A DNA stretch of 63,953 bases, filler included, from Reclinomonas americana ATCC 50394 (Eukaryota), in NCBI GenBank assembly GCA_048213135.1. It is 32 parts of 32 records of this genome, joined end to end, with 100 filler letters (N's around TTAATTAATTAA, not from the genome) between each part and the next. Parts side by side here need not be neighbours in the genome. Positions count along the whole stretch, not along the records: positions 37,341 to 39,615 come from AFZH01024962.1; 31 more parts are not named here. The stretch is one strand, 5' to 3'. Shown in pieces: positions 22,159 through 53,284 of the stretch. The notes below the pieces were generated by a model. It was given only the letters and a program-made list of their open reading frames with translations, did no database searches and was not told the DNA's origin. The translations under genes were made by a program, and so were the position numbers. Within the stretch, counting starts at the first letter, position 1, and each line of letters starts with the position of its first letter.

Positions 22159-23202
22159 ATGCCGCCTGCTCAGCAGAAGAAGTCGGTGCGTTGATGGTGG
22201 CGTAGTAGAGTGTGGTGCTGTGCGATGCTGTATGGGAGTCGTCAGCGTGTGAGGAAGAGGGGGAGAAGAAGGGGGCGTGCATGTCGATGGCGCATGTGCA
22301 CTTGCATGCCCCGCCACTCGGCCGTTCTTCAGCGATGCGTCAGTGTGTGTGTGTGTGTCTGCGTGTGCGTGATACGCGCTTGTGTGTTTCGTTGTGTGTT
22401 CTGTGACTGCTTGTGCTCGGAGAAGGACGAGACCGCAAGTGGTTCTTCGCTGTTCTCTCTTGTGCCGTTCTCTCTCTCTCTCTCTCCCTGTGTGTGTATG
22501 CGCTCCCCACGCACAGGCGCGCACAGCGTGATGTCGTAAAAGCCACAGTGGAGAGAGAACCATGAAAAGAGAGAGGGACTCCACCATGGCCGACATGGTC
22601 ACGCTCCTTTTCTCTCTCTCTCTCTCCTTGTCAGCACCACTTCCCTTCCATAGTCACACACGCATGTGTGTGTATGCGCACATTCTCCATCACCGTGGAC
22701 GTCTCTACTCACACCGGTTTATCATTTCTTTTTCGGCGAGCGCAGAAGAAGGCTCTTGAGGGCGTGAACGCCCGCCTCAACCTGGTCATGAAGTCCGGCA
22801 AGTACGTGCTCGGCGTCAAGGAGACCATCCGCAACATGCGCAACGGCAAGGCCAAGATGGTGATTGTGTCGGAGAACACACCACCTCTGCGCCGCTCCCA
22901 GATCGAGTACCTGGCGTACCTGGCACACGTCACTGTGTTGCACTATGCTGGCAGTTGCGCACACACTCTCCATCTTCTGTGTGCGCACCACTCTCTCCTT
23001 TGCTGTGCGCTCATCCACCCCGCAAACGCACAGACAACATTGACTTGGGAACTGCATGCGGCAAGTACTTCCGCGTGGGCGTGCTCGCCATCACCGATGC
23101 TGGTGCGTCGTCCCTTCCATTGTGCATGTGAGAAGCAAGCAGCGCATCGTTGGCTCACTTTGTGCTTTCACCACAGGTGACTCTGACATCCTCACGATGT
23201 AA
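22159..23202 (+). CDS. RPL30: 60S ribosomal protein L30 (eL30), 4 exons
   Basis: [32 protein letters not shown]...RRSQIEYLA...[32 protein letters not shown]. Confidence 0.96.
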
Positions 23203-25426: not shown

Positions 25427-27712
25427 TGGAAAGTGAGAAGAGAGAACGATTGACAATGCACACATCCACAAAGAAGCAGAGCATGCACGCACCCGCTCCA
25501 GTTTCTCCTGCTCCAGTTTCATGGCCGTGGCCTGGTACATACTGAGCTCCGACACTGTCGCCATCATCTTGCGCGTGGTGACCTTGAGGCGATGCTGATA
25601 CAGGTTCATCTCCTTGGCCGTATCCAGCGTCTCCTCACGCTCCTCCATGGCGCGCACACGAATCTTGTCCGACGCCCTAGTGAGCTGGTCCAGCAGCAAG
25701 TTCTTCTCCAGCACCTGCTCCTTCCTTGCATTCAACCGATCCTCCAGCACCGACATCTTCTTCTTCAGCTCGCCAGACTCCGGATCACGCCCCTCCAGCC
25801 GTCGCCATCTCTGTTTGTTCTCCGTCGACTCTGCGGCACAACAAAAAGATCAGCACTGAAGCGAAGATACTCCTCTCCCACTCTCTCTTTCCCTCCCTCG
25901 CTCGTACGCACCAAGCTGCAATGAATAAAATTCGGCCACTCTCCTCTCGAACTCGAGTTCCGCTTGCAGATCCAAAATCTCCAGCTGATGCTTCTCCACC
26001 TCTGGCAGCATGCGCTGGCATACGTCGATCTCGCGTCCCACATCCGTCAACTCAATCGTGAGCAAGCGAATCTCGTCCTCGCGCTTCCGCAGCGCCAACT
26101 CGCCCGTCTTCGCAATGCTCTCCTGCAAGTTGCTCTTCTCGTAGAGAATGCACAACTCGTCGTTGCGGTCAATGAGTTGAATGCCGGTGTAGTTGCGGTC
26201 CTCCACCGAGTGCTCGTACTGCTTCTTCAGCTTCAACATGTCCTCCTCCAGACGCGTGATCACGCCTGTTAGCCTGTCGACCTCGGCCTTGCTCTGGTTG
26301 ATGACCATATTCTTCTCCTTGATCTGCGCGCGCAGCTTGTCGACCTCGGACCGCGCCGCCTCCTTCTCCTTGATGACGCTGTTGTAGGCACGGCGCGACG
26401 TCTGCCGGTCCTTCTCCTTGGCAAACGACTCCTTGCTCAGCACATCCAACTCGTTCTCAATGATCTTGTTCTTCTCCTTGATCTCCGCCAGCCGCTGCTC
26501 GTTCATCTGAATTCCTTTTTGCTGCGCGATGGGTAGAGAAAGGTTGAGCAAGAGGCAATCGTACAAAGAGAGAAAACCACCACCCTCTCCTCCCGTGCAA
26601 CGACTCACGTAATTGTTCTTTTCGCGTCGCGCCTGCACAAACTTTTGATGCACACTGTCGGCGTAAATCTCAATCTGCTGCTGCTCGCGCAACAGCTCAG
26701 CAATCTCGGCCTCCTTCAGCACCACCTCCCGCTCCATCTCCTTCTTGCGGCTGAGGGCACGTGCCGCCTGTCGCGCCATCTGCTCGCGTTCTCTCGTCTT
26801 CTCCTCCAGCATCTTGTACACGGCCTTCTCCTCCTCCGACAGCTTCGCCACAATGTGCTCCAGCTTGCGCACATTGTCGAGCGTGTCGCGCAGCTGCGTG
26901 TGCGTGGCCTCGCTGCGATCGGCGTTCTCGAGCGTGTTGCGCATCTGAATCTCCACGTCCTTGTTCAACTCGCGCATTTCGCCGGCCGTGCGTTTCCGCT
27001 CACGGTCCACGGCCGCGATCTCATGCTGCACGGCGTCGAGCTGATTGCGCAACTCGATGCGATGTGCCGACGTGCTCTCAATCGCCGCCGTCAGCTTCTG
27101 GAAGCGCCGGGCCACGCGATCACGCTCGCGCTCAATCTTACCGAGGCGATCGCGTTCGCGGTTGTAGGTGAAGGCCTTGTCGGCCTGCTGCTCCTCCAAC
27201 TCGGCACGCTTCTCCTGCTCCGCTTCAATGTCGACCTTGAAGCGAGCTAGCTTGGCCTTCAGCTCCTCCTCCTGCTTCAGCAGCTTGACCAAGTCGGCGT
27301 CGTTGCCCTGGAAATCCAGTCGCAGCTCACATGACTCGTTCTCCAACCGCAATCTCTCCGCGTGTGCCTCCTGCAGCTGCCGCGCCGCCGTCTGATCGTC
27401 CTCCAACAGCTTTTGCAGCTCGCGTTTCCGCGACTCGACCGCACGCTGCACCACATCGGCCTTGCGTCGAATGACCTCCGGCTCGGCCTCCACCTTGGCC
27501 ACGCGAATACGCGCCTGCTTCTTGGTCTCCTCCAGCTCCTCCAGCGTCTTGGTCAGCTGCTCCACCTTGGCCTGCAGCGTCGTCTTCTCCGTCTCGTCTT
27601 TCAGGCGCGTCTGCAAAAAAAAACACACACACACAAACCAGAGTCAGAAGGAGGAGAGGAAAGGGGGGGCAAAGGGTGGTGGCGTTAGTTACCTCTTGCC
27701 CTTGTTCCAGTT
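25427..27712 (-). CDS. CCDC146: CCDC146/MBO2-like ciliary coiled-coil protein, haplotype A, partial
   Basis: DRNYTGIQLIDRNDELCILYEK, RWRRLEGRDP, TRKMMATVSELSMYQATA. Confidence 0.85.
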
Positions 27713-30197: not shown

Positions 30198-31277
30198 TCG
30201 GAGGGAGGGGAGAATGAGAAGGTCGCACCTGCACAGCAATGCGACCAATAATGTGCTCCTCGATCTTGCCACACGCGGTGATGAGGTCCTGCAGCGACCC
30301 TCGGTCCATGTACTCCAACGCCAACTGAATGGATCCCTCCTGGAAGAACGCACCAAAGAACTTGACGAGGTACGGCTGCACCCAGGAAACCGCAGTGGTG
30401 AGCTGCCAATCCCAATAAAAGCACACACATGTATGCATGCACACGCACCGAGTCAGAGCGGTAAAAGGCATCCAGCTCCTTGCCAATCTGCCGCCGCTTC
30501 TCCTCATCAAACACATGGATGAGCTGTGCGAATGCATGTCAGCTCGTGCATTCTTGTGAAGGAATGAAAGGCGGCGAACCTTGAGTGCCAACAGCTCGCC
30601 TGTTCTCTTGAGTTTTGCCTTCTTGACGACGCCAGAGCAGCCGTGGCCGAGCTCAGAGTCCGCCGGGTCAAAGGAGATGTCGGAGAACTGAATTCGCCCG
30701 CCCCTGTGCACACGCACCACAGAAGAGAGAGAGAGCGCGCATGAGAAAGATGTGTGGGACACACGGAGGGAGGGAGAGAGAGACATGGACGCAACGAATA
30801 CGCGTTGCTGCGTGACACAGTGTCGGTGGACATGCCGCTGGACGAGACCGCGTATCGTCCCTGACGGAAGGTGCCGCCCGGTGATCTGTTCCATGTGTGT
30901 GTGCGTGTGTGTATGTGAGTAAGAGAGGAAGAGACAAGAGCAGTTTGAGTGTGCGTGTGCGCGCGCGTGCGTGTGTGTGTGTGTGTCTGTGCGGGAGGAT
31001 GGCGGCCAAAATGACCCGCGCCCCTCTTGTGGCAGCAAGAGAGCGCGACACGCACGTGCTTGTCGTGGTGACATAGTGTGCCCGTGTGTGTGACAGGGGA
31101 GGAGGAGACAAGACGCATCATCACCACATGATCACGATGCAAACATGATAGGGATGATGAGCCTGGAACAAAACACACACACACGTGAGAGTGGAAACGC
31201 AACACTGGTCCCTCCTCTTGCTTCTCATCGTCGACGGCGATCTTGAGGCCGAGGTTGAGTGCCGGCTTCTTCGCCAT
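30198..31277 (-). CDS. MAP kinase kinase (STE7/MEK family), haplotype A, 3' partial
   Basis: N-terminal D-site-like KKPALNLGL, ELGHGCSGVV, LALK, YLVKFFGAF, LALEYMDRGSL. Confidence 0.88.
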
Positions 31278-31464
31278 TGTGAATGAATGCTGTGTTGTGT
31301 GTTGTCCCGCCAACCGAAGAAGAACTTCGACCTTCGAAAGCCAAGTCGAGCAAGTGAGCAAGTGGAAGTGATAGGTAGAGCGTGCATATGCAGCAAACCC
31401 GCAACGGCAAAGCAGCGGCTTACATTTCTACAACAAACATCATACAACTCTTTCGATTCTCTTC

Positions 31465-32479
31465 TCACTCGCCGAGGTACGGCCGAGCTGCCTCCCAGAT
31501 GCGGCCTTCGCGAATCAAGTCAGCGACAGTACCAATATCCCACGAGTGGACTCGATCACGCTCTGCAGGCACACCATACGTCAGCACATGTACATGGAAA
31601 GAGACAGACAGGCAGCAGCGATGAAATTCGAACCGTACGGTGCCACGTGCTGTCGCACGAGCAGGTACACAGCCTCCAGGGCCGGTGTCGACTTGAGTGG
31701 ACGCAGGAAATCAAAGGCCTGGCAGCCGCACAGCAGCTCAATGGCCAACACCGTCTCCACGTTCTTCACCACCTGCAGCGCCTTGCGAGCGGCCTTTCAT
31801 CAATCAAGAAAAACACTTGGGTGAGCCAACCGGCTTGCAACACGAGTCGCCACCACCTGCCAACGCAACCCAGGGGCCCATCGACACGTGGTCCTCCTTG
31901 CCAGCACTGGTGGAGATGCTGTCCGACGACGCCGGATGCACGAGCACCTTGTTCTCCGACGTCAATGCAGCCGCCGTGACATGGGCCACTGAATTTATTG
32001 GGTGCGGAGTGTGGGTGAGTGACTGTGAGATGTGGTGCGCGGTGTGGTGCGTACGACGCTCGCAACTCATGTAGCCCGAATTGATACCGCCCTCTCGGAC
32101 GAGGAACGCCGGCAGGTTGCTCTTTGTGTGATCGACAAGTCTGCACGACGCGAGGTGAGTGAGCACGCTGTCGCCACGCCCAAGCACACATACATACATA
32201 CACGGCTGACCTCTCAATACGCCGTTCGCTAATATTGGCCAGTTCGTGCACCGCAATCGCCACATAGTCGGCAGCCTTCGCCGGGTACTCGCCGTGGAAG
32301 TTGCCGGCCGACACAATGTCGCCACGTGGATTGCCGTGCTCGTCCACGCCCTCCTCAATCACAATCGGGTTATCCTACAGCAACAATGAGAAACAAGCCG
32401 GCAGCACAAATCAAATCGTGACACGTGACGCACCGTGGCCGAGTTCATCTCGGTCTCCAGCAGGTTGTGTGTAAAGGCC
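31465..32479 (-). CDS. HAL: Histidine ammonia-lyase, C-terminal exons, haplotype A
   Basis: [65 protein letters not shown]. Confidence 0.95.
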
Positions 32480-36837: not shown

Positions 36838-37548
36838 AATGCGAGAGAGAGAGAGAGGAGGGAGGAGGGAGGAGGGAGGAGGGAGAGGGTGTGTGAGAGG
36901 TAAGCAGAGAGACGTGAGAGTGTGAGAAACGAAGGGTGTGCGGGATTGCGACGGATTGATCGACGGATTGGTCACACCGGGACCGATGGACTCCGACGAC
37001 GTTCACTCGTGTCGTTCAAGCTTCGCACAGAAAGGAACTAGCTCTCTTCACAAGTCTGTTTGTCAGCGTTTTCACCTTTATTTGATTGCCGCAAAGAACT
37101 GCCGGTCGTCTGCAAGTATGCACGACACGGTGTCAGAACACCATCACTGAACACGGCAAGGGAGTGCGCCATACCATGCACGCCTTGCAGCTCTCAGTAG
37201 TCGTCTTCGTCTTCGTCTTCGTCATCCTCGTCCTCATCGGNNNNNNNNNNNNNNNNNNNNNNNNNNNNNNNNNNNNNNNNNNNNTTAATTAATTAANNNN
37301 NNNNNNNNNNNNNNNNNNNNNNNNNNNNNNNNNNNNNNNNTGCCCAGCGGGGTTTTTTTTGCAAGGGAGCCGCAGAGGAGCGATGGAAGAGGAGACAGAT
37401 AGGGAGAGTGAGAGAAGGGATGGATGCTGCTGTAATGAGCGCTGTGTGTGTGTACTTCTTCGTCATGTGACTGCGATTGGTTCCATTTTGTTTCTGTTTC
37501 ATTCACACAATGGCAGTGGCGCGCCTCTCGCCACGCACCACCACCCAC

Positions 37549-38604
37549 TCAGTACGCCGACGTCTTCTTCATGAGACGCACAAAATCGTTGAGATCAATG
37601 AGCCCGTCGCCGTCGCGATCGGCCTCGTAAATCATTTCTTGCAGCTCGTAGTCTGGTGACAAAGGATGATGAACAGACAAGAGGGAAGCAAGCACACAGG
37701 ATGGTTGGGTACGCACCTTCCAGCTTCTCACCGAGGTCGGCGGCGACCTTGCGTAGCTCGGGAATGCCGACCTTGCCGGAGGCTGCAATGCAACGCAGTA
37801 ATGAGGAGGAAAGAAAAACGGGGCGACAACCACCACCGCTCCATTGCACTCAACGACCCGCAAAGAGCGTGTACGCCTGCTGCAACTCCTCCCGCGTGTC
37901 CTTCTGGCCCATCTTTGTGGCGATGAGCTCGAGGAACTCGGGAAAGTCAATCTGTCCGCTGCCGTCGCGATCGGCTTGCGCCATCATCTGCACGCACGAA
38001 TGAGTGGACGATGTGGAGGCAGGCAGACGAAGAAGTAGACACAACTCGCTTGATCTCATCGCGTCCCGAGTCAAAGCCAAGCGTCTGCATGGCCACCTTC
38101 AGCTCCTTGGCATCGATTTGACCTGCACGCGCGATGAGGAAAAATACAAGCGTGTGAGCGTGGCGAAACACACCTGAGCCCTGTGAGAGATTGCCGCGCG
38201 CGAGAGAGAAGCAAGGATGAGTGCGTGTCGTTAAGAGCGAAGAGCGGGCAGTCACACGGAACACTGTGCGCGCAAGGAGGAGTCAGACGAGTGTGATGCA
38301 TCGCGCGTGGGGATTCAACACAAGACGCAACTCTGTGTCGAACAAATCAAACGCCTGCACACGCACACGCATATACAGAAGAGGTGAGAGACACGCGGAG
38401 TTGCACTGTGACACAGACGCACCCACTCTCACCTCGCGGATCTCGACTTTTTGATCATCCGTCAGCTCCACCTTGCCGCGTCCGCGCGCTCTTGAAGTGC
38501 CCGTGTTGGTTCGTCGGTACTGTGCCTGTGTCACGCATGCGTGAGCAGTGCGCATGAGGAGCAGCGAGGAGGGGGGGGGGGGGGGGGGGGAAGACGCACA
38601 CCAT
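37549..38604 (-). CDS. CETN: Centrin (EF-hand protein), 9 exons including 1-nt and 7-nt exons
   Basis: [70 protein letters not shown]. Confidence 0.93.
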
Positions 38605-39261
38605 TCACGCTGTGAGCAGATTTCACGGCCGGTTCCGTCGACTGAGATCTTCACACTTTATCTCGCTCGCTTCTGCGCCTGCATTCTCTCGCTCAACAAA
38701 GGTTTGTCTCTTCCCGCTGTCTGTCGCTGCATTGTGCATTCGCTCTGTTTGCTTCGTGCGCGCGTCAGTTGTGTGTGTGCGCACTTGTTGCGTGTGAGAG
38801 ATGTCCATTGCAACCTTGCGCGACACACGCTCTCTCTCCCCTTCCCTCTCCCTCTCGCTCTCCGTGTGCGTATGCGTGCCGTTGTGAATGCGTCGTCTGC
38901 TGCGTGCGTGTGTGTCTTTTTGCGAGGTGATGCACGCTGATGCAGCTATTTCCTGTTGACTGTTTGATGGGGCACAGATCGCGCCCGTTCACTCCCTCTT
39001 TTTTCTCTGCATCAGAGCACTGCCTCAATCAAAATAGCTTTTGTTTGTGTGTGTGAGAGAGAGCACCAAGTACCTCATAAAGGAAGAGACTCACTTGACA
39101 GAGAAAGGTGCGCGGTGAGACAGAGTGTGCGTGTGTGTGTGCGCATCGCGCCAACATTTCCCTCGCTGTCTTCGTGCCTCCCCCCGTTCCATCCATGTCG
39201 TTCCCTGTGGCTGGCGTGCTCACTCTCCCGCTCCACTCTCGCGCACACGCGCAGACTTGCA

Positions 39262-39540
39262 ATGGAGATCGACAACCCCTGCCCCGTCTCTGCCGCCTTC
39301 TTCGGCATGATTGGCTCCGCTGCCGCCCTGGTGTTTGCCAGTTGCGTCTTTGACCTCCTTTGCATGCACACCAGCGTGGTGTCGTGTTGTCTCTTACCCT
39401 CTCCCCTTCTTAGACCTCGGCGCCGCCTACGGCACCGCCAAGTCTGGCGTCGGCATTGCCGCCTCTGGTGTGGTCAACCCCAATGGCATCATGAAGTCCA
39501 TTATCCCCGTCGTCATGGCTGGTATTCTGGGTATCTACGG
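39262..39540 (+). CDS. ATP6V0C: V-type ATPase 16-kDa proteolipid subunit c, 3' partial
   Basis: [48 protein letters not shown]. Confidence 0.95.
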
Positions 39541-39754
39541 TGCGTGTGTTGGCAGAGCAGCAGATGCCACACTAGCAGGCAACAGCAACTGGGGACAATG
39601 ATGAGACTCATATCGNNNNNNNNNNNNNNNNNNNNNNNNNNNNNNNNNNNNNNNNNNNNTTAATTAATTAANNNNNNNNNNNNNNNNNNNNNNNNNNNNN
39701 NNNNNNNNNNNNNNNGCGCGCGCGCTGCGCGTGTGCGTGTGCGTGTGTGCTCAC

Positions 39755-40996: not shown

Positions 40997-42087
40997 GACA
41001 CCGTCGTCGTCGGCAGCTGCACCTGCCACTCGTCCAGGGGGGTCGATACTCGCGGCACCTGTACCGCTCCAGCACCACATGTCGCACCACCAGCCGCACC
41101 CACAGTCGTCCATCTTGGCGGCACCGCATGTCGCCGTGGCGGCTGTGGCCCCAGTGCCGAATCCGTACGGCTATGGTGTACCTGCAGCGGGGCCTTACAG
41201 TGGAGCAGAGGGTCCCAGAGGGGCACGATACACCACGAGTGGGAGGTCGGGTGCACGATCCTTGTTTCTCTGCGTGTGTGTTGTGTGTTGTGAGTGTGTT
41301 TTATGTGTCGGGCGCGCCGCGGTGGGTGACCGATGTTGGTGTGTTGCCATTGTGTTCACTCACTGGCAATTGTTGTTTTTTTTGTGTGCTTGTGTGCGCC
41401 ACCGCAGCACACCGTTTGTTGCGCGTCTGCGTGGCATTCCGTTCTATGCCACGGAGGAGGAGCTGCAAGAGTTTCTGCGCGGTATCAACATCATCCCCAA
41501 CGGCATTCATCGCATTCTTGACCAGACTGGTCGGTTCAGTGGACAAGGTGCGGCAGACCGCTGTCAGCTCACTCCCGTCAGCATTATGTGCTGACGCGTG
41601 TGTTGTCGTGCGTGCAGCGTACGTTGAGCTGCCGACATACGAGGACATGCGCGCCATCTTCAAGCTCGATCGTACCTACATGGGCAGTCGGTACATTGAG
41701 GTGTTGCAGGCCAAGGACGGCGAGTTGCGCGGTGCGCTGAACTGGCAGACCGGCGCGGCGCCACCGACTCAGTATGGTGGTGGCGATCGCAGTGCGTACA
41801 GAGCTCGTTGCGTTGCGCGCGTGTCCTACACGCCTCATTCATTCATTGTGTGTGTTTCACACTTTTTTGTTGCGTGCGCAGCGGATCCGTATGCGGCGGT
41901 GCAGCAGTACGACTACGCGCCCTCGTACGGAAGCAATGGTGGTGCTGGTGGCGGTTATGTGCCCGCACCCGCAGCTACTTCGTACGGCAGCAGTTCGTCG
42001 GCGTCGCCATACAGCACTGGCGTCTCGTCCAACCAGCAGTACGTGCCAATGGCCTCGCAGGCACCGTCGTCCTACGGTACCGCTCCG
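40997..42087 (+). CDS. hnRNP F/H / ESRP-like quasi-RRM protein, partial
   Basis: VARLRGIPFYATEEEL.EFL, GRFSGQ|AYVEL, YMGSRYIEV; G/Y/S-rich tail. Confidence 0.85.
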
Positions 42088-51026: not shown

Positions 51027-52105
51027 AGGGAGAATGGTAGGGGAGAATGAGAAGGTCGCACCTGCACAGCAATGCGACCAATAATGTGCTCCTCGATCTT
51101 GCCACACGCGGTGATGAGGTCTTGCAGCGACCCTCGGTCCATGTACTCCAGCGCCAACTGAATGGATCCCTCCTGGAAGAACGCACCAAAGAACTTGACG
51201 AGGTACGGCTGCACACAGGAAACCGCAGTGGTGAGCTGCCAATCCCAATAAAAGCACACACGTGCGCACGCACCGAGTCAGAGCGGTAAAAGGCATCCAG
51301 CTCCTTGCCAATCTGCCGCCGCTTCTCCTCATCAAACACATGGATGAGCTGTGCGAATGCATGTCAGCTCGTGCATTCTTGTGAAGGAATGAAAGGCGGC
51401 GAACCTTGAGTGCCAACAGCTCGCCTGTTCTCTTGAGTTTTGCCTTCTTGACGACGCCAGAGCAGCCGTGGCCGAGCTCAGAGTCCGCCGGGTCAAAGGA
51501 GATGTCGGAGAACTGAATTCGCCCGCCCCTGTGCACACGCACCACAGACGAGAGAGAGCGCGCGTGAGGGACACAAGGCGGAGATGTGTGGAGCACACGG
51601 AGAGAGACATGGACGCAACGAATACGCGTTGCTGCGTGACACAGTGTCGGTGGACATGCCGCTGGACGAGACCGCGTATCGTCCCTGACGGAAGGTGCCG
51701 CCCGGTGATCTGTTCCATGTGTGTGTGCGTGTGTGTGCATGTGAGTAAGAGAGGAAGAGACAAGAGCAGTTTGAGTGTGCGTGTGCGCGCGCGTGCGTGT
51801 GTGTGTGTGTCTGTGCGGGAGGATGGCGGCCAAAATGACCCGCGCCCCTCTTGTGGCAGCAGAAGAGCGCGACACGCATGTGCTTGTCATAATGACACAG
51901 TGTGGCCCGTGTGTGTGACAGGGGAGGAGGAGACAAGACGCATCATCACCACATGATCACGATGCAAATATGATAGTGATAATGAGCCTGGAACAAAAAA
52001 ACACGCACACACGTGAGAGTGGAAACGCAACACTGGTCCCTCCTCTTGCTTCTCATCGTCGACGGCGATCTTGAGGCCGAGGTTGAGTGCCGGCTTCTTC
52101 GCCAT
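51027..52105 (-). CDS. MAP kinase kinase, haplotype B, 3' partial
   Basis: Near-identical to 30198-31277. Confidence 0.88.
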
Positions 52106-52285
52106 TGTGAATGCTGTGTGTTGTCCCGCCAACCGAAGTAGAACTTCGACCTTCGAAAGCCAAGTCAAGCAAGTGCACACAGAAGACAGTGACTTGAAGA
52201 GTCTGCATATGCAGCAAAGCCGCAACGGCAAAGCAGCGGCTTACATTTCTACAACAAACATCATACAATTCTTTCGATTCTCTTC

Positions 52286-53284
52286 TCACTCGCCGAGGTA
52301 CGGCCGAGCTGCCTCCCAGATGCGGCCTTCGCGAATCAAGTCGGCGACAGTACCAATATCCCACGAGTGGACTCGATCACGCTCTGCAGACGCACCATCC
52401 GTCAGCACATGCACATGGAAAGAGACAGACAGGCAGCAGCGATGAAATTCGAACCGTACGGTGCCACGTGCTGTCGCACGAGCTGGTACACAGCCTCCAG
52501 GGCCGGTGTCGACTTGAGTGGACGCAGGAAATCAAAGGCCTGGCAGCCGCACAGCAGCTCAATGGCCAACACCGTCTCCACGTTCTTCACCACCTGCAGT
52601 GCCTTGCGAGCGGCCTACATACCCAGAAAAGGGTGAGCCAACGGCTTGCAACACACAAGTCGCCACCACCTGTCAACGCAACCCAGGGGCCCATCGACAC
52701 GTGGTCCTCCTTGCCAGCACTGGTGGAGATGCTGTCCGACGACGCCGGATGCACCAGCACCTTGTTCTCCGACGTCAATGCAGCCGCCGTGACATGAGCC
52801 ACTGAATTTATTCGGTGCGGAGTGTTGGTCAGTGACTGTGAGCTGTGGTGCGCGGTGTGGTGCGTACGACGCTCGCAACTCATGTAGCCCGAATTGATAC
52901 CGCCCTCTCGGACGAGGAACGCCGGCAGGTTGCTCTTTGTGTGGTCGACAAGTCTGCACAACGAGGGGTGAGTGAGCACGCTGTCGCCACGCACATACAT
53001 ACATACACGGCCGACCTCTCAATACGCCGTTCGCTAATATTGGCCAGTTCGTGCACCGCAATCGCCACATAGTCGGCAGCCTTGGCCGGGTACTCGCCGT
53101 GGAAGTTGCCGGCCGACACAATGTCGCCACGCGGATTGCCGTGCTCGTCCACGCCCTCCTCAATCACAATCGGGTTATCCTACAGCAACAGTGAGAAACA
53201 AGCCGACAGCACAAATCAAATCGTGACACGTGACGCACCGTGGCCGAGTTCATCTCGGTCTCCAGCATGTTGTGTGTAAAGGCG
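52286..53284 (-). CDS. HAL: Histidine ammonia-lyase, haplotype B, 5' partial
   Basis: Near-identical to 31465-32479. Confidence 0.95.

Follow-up and report, generated by a model that had tools for sequence, protein, structure and literature searches.

The DNA analyzed here, hereafter the window, is a stretch of 63,953 bases from the Reclinomonas americana ATCC 50394 assembly GCA_048213135.1, and one of the contigs joined within it (37341-39615, 2,275 nt) carries a centrin gene on its minus strand. The T at position 38263 is probably a genuine single-nucleotide exon of this gene, followed by an exon of 7 nt, such that eight coding bases (T + GGCTCAG) would be spread over 209 nt and three introns. 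This arrangement had been predicted earlier at 38123..38331 on the minus strand, and its coordinates and letters proved to be right to the base. All of the indirect tests that were run support the combination of a 1-nt and a 7-nt exon, and from the sequence we infer that the mRNA contains the T.

Structure and reading frame of the centrin gene

When spliced by coordinates, the centrin coding sequence (CDS) translates from ATG to TGA without a stop, yielding 8 exons, 531 nt and a product of 176 amino acids. Introns 1-7 are 78, 68, 82, 51, 58, 75 and 64 nt in length, and every one of them has the form GT...CAG. The parts of the gene that matter here are as follows.

37549..38555, minus strand: centrin CDS, ATG to TGA
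38555-38433, minus strand: exon 1, 123 nt
38332..38354, minus strand: exon 2, 23 nt, GCG TTT GAT TTG TTC GAC ACA GA
38264..38331, minus strand: intron 2, 68 nt, with donor GTTGCGTC, branch-like CTGAC at 38286-38282 and acceptor GCGCACAG
38263..38263, minus strand: proposed single-nucleotide exon T, judged by frame and residue, flanking site scores and background rate
38181..38262, minus strand: intron 3, 82 nt, with donor GTTCCGTG, branch-like CTCAT at 38221-38217 and acceptor CTCTCACAG
38174..38180, minus strand: 7-nt exon GGCTCAG, made up of a Gly codon, a Ser codon and one base that opens another Gly codon
38123..38173, minus strand: intron 4, 51 nt, GTGTGTTT...CTCAT...GCGTGCAG
38046..38122, minus strand: exon 5, 77 nt, GT CAA ATC GAT GCC AAG..., encoding the rest of EF-hand 1 and the linker
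37987-37858, minus strand: exon 6, 130 nt
37782-37717, minus strand: exon 7, 66 nt
37652-37549, minus strand: exon 8, 104 nt

Exon 2 ends in phase 2, partway through the codon that specifies residue 3 of the EF-hand 1 loop. The T is nucleotide 147 of the CDS and would supply the third base of codon 49 (GA + T = Asp), at the third position of the first EF-hand loop. The original prediction held that the T gives a canonical centrin loop and that skipping it shifts the frame, and both statements were borne out when the possible readings of the junction (ALTERNATIVES) were compared: T included, T skipped, a shifted single intron, an extra G, a GA-AG intron, and retention of either sub-intron, the T-less readings across exons 2-5 being GACACAGAGGGCTCAG or GACACAGGCTCAG. 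Only inclusion of the T gives the loop DTDGSGQID, within an open centrin of 176 residues, whereas skipping it causes a frameshift and a stop after 11 codons, and retention of either sub-intron breaks the frame. A single intron with TT-AG or GT-CA ends (38330-38181 or 38331-38182) leads to DTEGSG; the same product results if the GGG run at 38179-38181 gains one G. A GA-AG intron (38333-38181) stays in frame with the loop shortened to 11 residues (DTGSGQID). Among homologues, the residue at the position of the T codon is D in 43, N in 16, a gap in 1 and E in 0 of 60 tblastn alignments (26 of the 28 metagenome loci).

The identity of the gene is supported by several of its parts. With exon 5 (25 amino acids), 15 of the 17 matches in the Protein Data Bank (PDB) at E<=1 were centrin, caltractin or Cdc31, and the top three were caltractin/centrin; the C-terminal exon matches calmodulins and centrins about equally. 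The first 28 residues of the product are rich in R, K and T and its C-terminus is KKTSAY, in keeping with the basic N-terminal extension and the C-terminal KKTS-x-[YF] tail, which we take to be marks of centrins. The product is colinear over residues 3-176 with an intronless metagenome centrin (L016), the sole gap being 2 residues in EF-hand 3; in the EF-hand 1 loop the two align without a gap. The loops of EF-hand 1 (with the T included), EF-hand 2 and EF-hand 4 are canonical D-x-D-x-[DS]-G. EF-hand 3 (LFAASGKVGIPEL, at the exon 6/7 junction 37858-37782) is 2 residues shorter than in L016 and the calmodulin loci and is without acidic loop residues; judged by its sequence, it is probably a dead or degenerate EF-hand. 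A hidden micro-exon that would repair EF-hand 3 was considered and rejected, given the in-frame TGA directly after exon 6 and the 75-nt length of intron 6. A run of 20 C lies at 38571-38590 (minus strand), 16 nt upstream of the centrin ATG.

Splice signals of the proposed T exon and of reference introns

The sites flanking the T were judged against a reference set of 18 robust introns, whose boundaries were fixed by protein homology and reading frame and set by eye: 5 from centrin, 2 from RPL30, 4 from a dynein gene, 5 from a gene for histidine/phenylalanine ammonia-lyase (HAL) and 2 from a gene for deoxyhypusine hydroxylase (DOHH). The lengths of these introns span 51-110 nt around a median of 73.5 nt, and 17 of them are 80 nt or shorter; all 18 are GT-AG introns and 15 end in CAG. 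The view that the T splits one oversized intron into two of normal size agrees with these values, in that both halves (68 + 1 + 82 nt) fall within the local range and a single intron of 151 nt would be the longest of the set. The first intron of RPL30 (22598-22745, plus strand) may be approximately 148 nt, reading ATG GCC GAC ATG, then GTCACG...GCGCAG, then AAG, with an uncertain donor; if real, it is about twice the usual length and might hide something or show that longer introns exist.

Donor and acceptor sites were scored in bits on matrices built from the 18 introns, for which the leave-one-out medians of the real sites were 4.39 bits for donors and 4.40 bits for acceptors. The donor of intron 2 (GTTGCGTC) scored 4.76 bits, the acceptor before the T (GCGCACAG) 7.23 bits, and the donor after the T (GTTCCGTG) 5.20 bits, above the median. 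Over 8 nt, the donors of centrin intron 4 (GTGTGTTT) and of dynein intron 1 do not differ. Robust donors fall into two groups, one resembling GTGCGT or GTGTGT and the other beginning with GTT (7 of 18), and GTTGCG itself opens 4 of the 18 introns (one in RPL30, one in dynein and two in HAL), so that the shifted GTT donor class to which both donors had been assigned is real. The positions of these donors, of examples of the branch-like motif considered below and of one further intron are as follows.

22954, 28762, 32066, 31869 and 38331: GTTGCG donors, 38331 being that of centrin intron 2
38045, 28965, 31633 and 38262: other GTT donors, 38262 being that of centrin intron 3
38286-38282, 38221-38217 and 23010-23014: examples of the branch-like motif
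41548-41617, plus strand: intron of an RRM gene, 70 nt, GTGCGG...CTGAC...GTGCAG, a canonical GT-AG intron

The GTTGCG junction of RPL30 predicts the peptide HYAG-N-NIDLG, and this is confirmed by a full-length relative (P0124, 80% identical) that reads HYAGNNIDLG. P0124 is probably a transcript, because it is full length on a contig of 542 nt. A second relative, P0123, is 84% identical to the RPL30 exon at 22746-22952, to which the 80% value for P0124 also refers, and reads on into the intron at the same position, after HYAG. Because P0123 and P0124 resemble RPL30, relatives of this organism exist in public assemblies; none was found for centrin. The two donor registers look like one TGCGT core shifted by one base (GTGCGT versus GT-TGCG(T)). 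By eye, the RRM gene at 41548-41617 resembles hnRNP F/H, and it had no Pfam match at the open reading frame (ORF) length used.

Of the 18 robust introns, 17 have a branch-like motif, CT[CGT]A[CTA], 10 to 45 nt ahead of the acceptor, compared with 28% of shuffled introns, and in 16 of the 17 the motif lies 39-60 nt from the donor, a spacing that suggests a donor-to-branch ruler. Each of the two introns around the T has a candidate of its own. The CTGAC noted in the original prediction is found in intron 2 at a typical position, with its A at -20/+49, and intron 3 contains CTCAT, with its A at -38/+45.

Chance occurrence of AG-N-GT sites

How often a site of this kind arises by chance was estimated with 20,000 dinucleotide-preserving shuffles of the 151-nt interval, in which the outer sites were held fixed. 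Of the 20,000 shuffles, 659 held some AG-N-GT with 45 nt or more to either side of it; with both scores at least 2 bits the number was 246, with both scores at or above the medians 25, and at the observed scores of the T site 3. A background scan of the eukaryotic contigs of the window, which covered 73,924 nt counting both strands, found 13 AG-N-GT sites, apart from the T site, whose acceptor and donor both scored no lower than the medians. Two of them are a single place seen in both allelic CFAP58 contigs, within a long open frame, and a third is formed by the end of exon 2. At the observed scores, the scan found one other site, at 41618, where the true acceptor of the RRM intron is followed by a chance GTACGT in the exon. 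Approximately 0.03 chance sites at or above the medians are expected per 151-nt interval, a number that roughly halves when only T or C is allowed as the base.

The end of exon 2 also scores as an acceptor-N-donor site (6.2 and 4.8 bits), and the minus-strand 12-mers that span the intron 2 donor (38336-38325, ACAGAGTTGCGT) and the T exon (38267-38256, ACAGTGTTCCGT) share 10 of 12 bases. This likeness hints at an origin by local duplication, with the qualification that the intron bodies are not similar. A tandem duplication giving rise to introns 2 and 3 was rejected, as the similarity between the two lacks significance (102 of 1,000 shuffles score equally well). No RNA structure that brings the splice sites together was found, the predicted folding of the 251-nt region being no better than that of shuffled sequence (z = -0.24, with 80 of 200 shuffles equalling it).

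Composition of the window and relatives of the centrin

The window consists of 32 contigs of 1.1-2.3 kb, with 62 runs of 44 N paired around the spacer TTAATTAATTAA. Because the window is a chain of separate contigs, features are not to be read across the spacers, of which three are given as examples.

1299-1398, 37241-37340 and 39616-39715: spacers between contigs (N44-TTAATTAATTAA-N44)

The contigs fall into two classes of GC content, one bacterial (0.65-0.69) and one eukaryotic (0.55-0.61). Contigs of the former class carry bacterial genes, namely those for HipA, OpgC, a GDSL lipase, an FGE-sulfatase, a GntR-aminotransferase and a ParB-like nuclease. The latter class comprises 18 contigs and 36,962 nt, is assigned to one eukaryote, a flagellate, and carries two copies of CFAP58, a dynein heavy-chain C-terminus, RPL30, DOHH, HAL, kinases, mitofilin, a Kelch protein and the centrin. 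The Pfam scan of the contigs covered stop-to-stop ORFs of at least 70-74 amino acids, a procedure that will have passed over genes built solely of short exons. The best matches of the DOHH exon are 45-55% identical and are spread over fish, oomycetes, chytrids, choanoflagellates and transcriptomes. Outside coding sequence, the eukaryotic contigs are rich in CA/GT and GA/CT microsatellites.

Two pairs of eukaryotic contigs are nearly identical, one carrying CFAP58 (25428-27710 versus 46820-44559, 97% identity) and the other HAL and a kinase (30203-32478 versus 51036-53283, 94% identity). The assembly therefore contains diverged alleles or strains, and the members of each pair are presumably alleles or derive from co-occurring strains.

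Among metagenome contigs, 28 matching loci were found, none of them a close relative of the centrin (at most 48% identity over the whole exon); identities of up to 93% cover just 14-19 residues. Genome contigs gave 380 pattern matches for the centrin, of which 0 were confirmed, and a comparison of exon 6 with longer proteins gave 3 candidates, of which 0 were significant. A HMMER search of 1.84 billion protein representatives returned 4,921 matches at E<=0.001, the best 150 of which are at most 50% identical, are mostly multi-EF-hand proteins and include no close centrin relative. Nine of the metagenome loci (L001-L008 and L011), which carry centrin-like genes, have gaps of approximately 20 nt between colinear high-scoring segment pairs (HSPs), e.g. 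from 475 to 496 in L001. These gaps resemble the tiny introns of ciliates and are unrelated to the centrin T exon.

Alternative explanations

Several points weigh against a single-nucleotide exon at 38263. The scoring matrices rest on just 18 introns with boundaries set by eye, 5 of which come from centrin itself. The acceptor of intron 3 (CTCTCACAG) scores low, at 1.84 bits, which is above 4 of the 18 robust acceptors, and AG-N-GT of any quality is not very rare, with 289 occurrences in the 73,924 nt scanned. The argument from intron length is merely suggestive, because the first intron of RPL30 may be ~148 nt long, and a degenerate EF-hand 1 is not unthinkable, because EF-hand 3 is already 2 residues short. 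The metagenome, genome-contig and protein searches brought up no further copy, allele or orthologue of the locus in which conservation of the AG-T-GT could be read. Finally, an assembly error of 1 nt is possible, because the centrin contig is just 2,275 nt long.

This last point leads to the alternative that survives best, although we consider it improbable: a sequence or assembly error, or a frameshifted allele or pseudogene, in which the true gene would have one more base (e.g. a fourth G at 38179-38181, C on the plus strand) and a single intron of ~151 nt, the AG-T-GT being coincidental. The contig is a short piece of a mixed and fragmented assembly, a homopolymer of 3 bases adjoins the acceptor, and assembly indels are by their base rates far commoner than 1-nt exons. 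However, the extra G would produce the loop DTEGSG, with a residue seen in none of the 60 homologue alignments, and the intron required would be of 151 nt, when 17 of the 18 robust introns do not exceed 80 nt. An internal acceptor and donor above the medians, together with a branch motif, would be left unexplained, the chance of such a site being 3-25 in 20,000 shuffles, and the remaining 7 exons and every other splice site of the centrin are intact.

The near-identical contigs bear on the same question. The allelic contigs of the HAL pair are set apart by 63 substitutions and 20 indels, and none of the 20 falls within the 660 coding nt; substitutions amount to 1.5% in coding sequence versus 3.3% elsewhere. 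In the CFAP58 pair, the indels within the long frame near 26556-26592 total 21 nt and keep the frame; another indel, of 1 nt, lies at 27615, close to the upstream limit of the frame, and there the position at which coding really starts is uncertain. Because the indels of these pairs show the pattern of natural variation, the assembly does not appear to be full of coding indel errors, a test that is an indirect one.

A second alternative, which seems to us very improbable, is that the T is not used and that one non-canonical intron is removed, giving DTEGSGQID when its ends are TT-AG or GT-CA, or DTGSGQID when they are GA-AG. Both products are in frame, and since EF-hand 3 is already 2 residues short, odd loops are evidently tolerated in this centrin. 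Against this stand the GT-AG ends of all 18 robust introns and of the RRM intron, the length of 150-153 nt that such an intron would have, and the products themselves, in which the loop position would hold E (0 of 60 alignments) or be deleted (1 gap in 60); the strong internal site would again go unexplained. It is similarly hard to credit that the T is used in only part of the transcripts, with skipping (excision of 151 nt) yielding a frameshifted, prematurely ended mRNA in a regulated unproductive-splicing switch for centrin: the stop 11 codons after a skipped T, the usability of both the outer donor and the outer acceptor and the proneness of very short exons to skipping (PMC4674806) would suit such a switch, but intron lengths suggest that the 151-nt excision is disfavoured, and the APC11 example from Arabidopsis is described as constitutive in the same source.

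A possible model for splicing of the proposed T exon

In the preferred reading, in which the T is an exon, the splice sites would be recognized by intron definition, as the original prediction also proposed. In organisms with short introns, splice sites are paired across the intron and not across the exon, and under such a regime an exon would need no length. The introns of the present organism are short and of uniform size, and their branch motif is clear and keeps a nearly constant spacing to the donor. The introns of 68, 82 and 51 nt would each form a complete unit, with a GT donor, a CTSAY-type branch motif and a CAG acceptor, and each of the three would be recognized across itself and excised separately. 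The resulting mRNA would read ...GAC ACA GA-T-GGC TCA G-GT CAA... and encode a canonical calcium-binding loop.

Base pairing of U1 at the 5' splice site spans the last three positions of the exon, and the last three positions before the donor of intron 3 are the A and G of the intron 2 acceptor and the T. Simultaneous recognition of the two introns is implausible, because just 1 nt lies between the intron 2 AG and the intron 3 GT and the U1 footprint overlaps the acceptor. As the 3' splice-site factors and the U1 of the next site would be unable to occupy the RNA together, the most likely course is sequential removal of introns 2 and 3. If intron 2 were removed first, a 5' splice site consisting of GAT followed by GTTCCG would be recreated, as at a ratchet point of recursive splicing; if intron 3 were removed first, an 8-nt exon would be left, CACAG being followed by TGGCTCAG. 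Whichever of the two goes first would leave a normal substrate for the other. The 7-nt exon would pose the same problem of overlap with respect to intron 4.

A bolder proposal, which we regard as rather unlikely and put forward as speculation, is that this flagellate lineage pairs splice sites wholly inside introns by means of a fixed ruler, so that nothing in an exon serves for its recognition and exons can be of any size, however small. The chain of 23-, 1- and 7-nt exons would then be one member of a genome-wide class of ultra-short exons that arose by intron gain beside existing introns and that have an obligate order of removal.

Comparison with known single-nucleotide exons

Exons of 1 nt were described in the original prediction as documented but very rare, and published cases agree with this: one in APC11 of Arabidopsis and one in CYP621A of Fusarium. 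In Arabidopsis thaliana APC11, a constitutive lone A lies between AG and GT, 333 nt into an interval of 422 nt (Guo and Liu 2015, PMC4674806); the proof came from cDNA sequencing and from minigenes with substitutions and deletions, which rice also spliced correctly (PMC4674806). As in the centrin, the lone base lies between AG and GT inside one apparent intron, is required for the reading frame, and has its own upstream branch-point candidate and ordinary GT-AG introns. The centrin differs in that the base is T and not A, the introns are of 68 and 82 nt, a 7-nt micro-exon adjoins, the organism is a protist and the exon is proposed from the genomic sequence.

The second case, a single G (AGGGT) that forms the middle base of a Gly codon in Fusarium CYP621A (Nelson and Syed 2026, PMC12940212), was recognized by the same logic. 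It was deduced from a phase mismatch, an intron of 139 nt versus a median of 56 nt, an intronless homologue as a ruler and conservation in 24 genes, and was confirmed by 18 reads from the Sequence Read Archive (SRA), its authors calling it the second example (PMC12940212). The centrin likewise has a phase mismatch, an apparent intron over twice the median, an AG-N-GT that restores a conserved motif, an intronless homologue to serve as a ruler, and short introns, which imply intron definition in both genes. Apart from conservation in orthologues and supporting reads, the sequence-level evidence given for CYP621A thus has its counterpart in the centrin, with the differences that the lone base is T and not G and that a 7-nt exon adjoins it. 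A single-base-pair exon has also been reported in the mitochondrial cox1 gene of placozoans (PMC5436844), where it is needed for the frame, as in the centrin; unlike the centrin, cox1 is a mitochondrial gene with organellar introns and trans-splicing and does not depend on the nuclear spliceosome.

If confirmed, the centrin T would be the third nuclear one-base exon by the count given in the CYP621A paper (PMC12940212); it would also be the first from a protist, the first in a calcium-binding gene of the cytoskeleton and the first to adjoin a second micro-exon (7 nt). It would mean that a spliceosome acting on introns of ~70 nt needs no exon sequence whatever, and it would offer a natural substrate of ~250 nt in which to follow the order of removal of neighbouring introns whose splice sites overlap. 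Genes of this kind will be wrongly annotated, as frameshifted genes or pseudogenes, by standard gene finders and spliced aligners.

The nearest mechanistic analogue is found in the zero-nucleotide ratchet points of Drosophila, at which an acceptor abuts a donor and recursive splicing takes place (bioRxiv 10.1101/006163, PMC8605326). There, splicing to the acceptor recreates a 5' splice site, and the intron is removed stepwise. Ratchet points leave no base behind and subdivide very long introns, whereas the centrin would keep one coding base between introns of ~70-80 nt. By this analogy, the T site may work like a ratchet point but is not one, as one base is retained, and the centrin T exon would belong to a very rare known kind, of which APC11 and CYP621A are the precedents, rather than represent a new principle of splicing.

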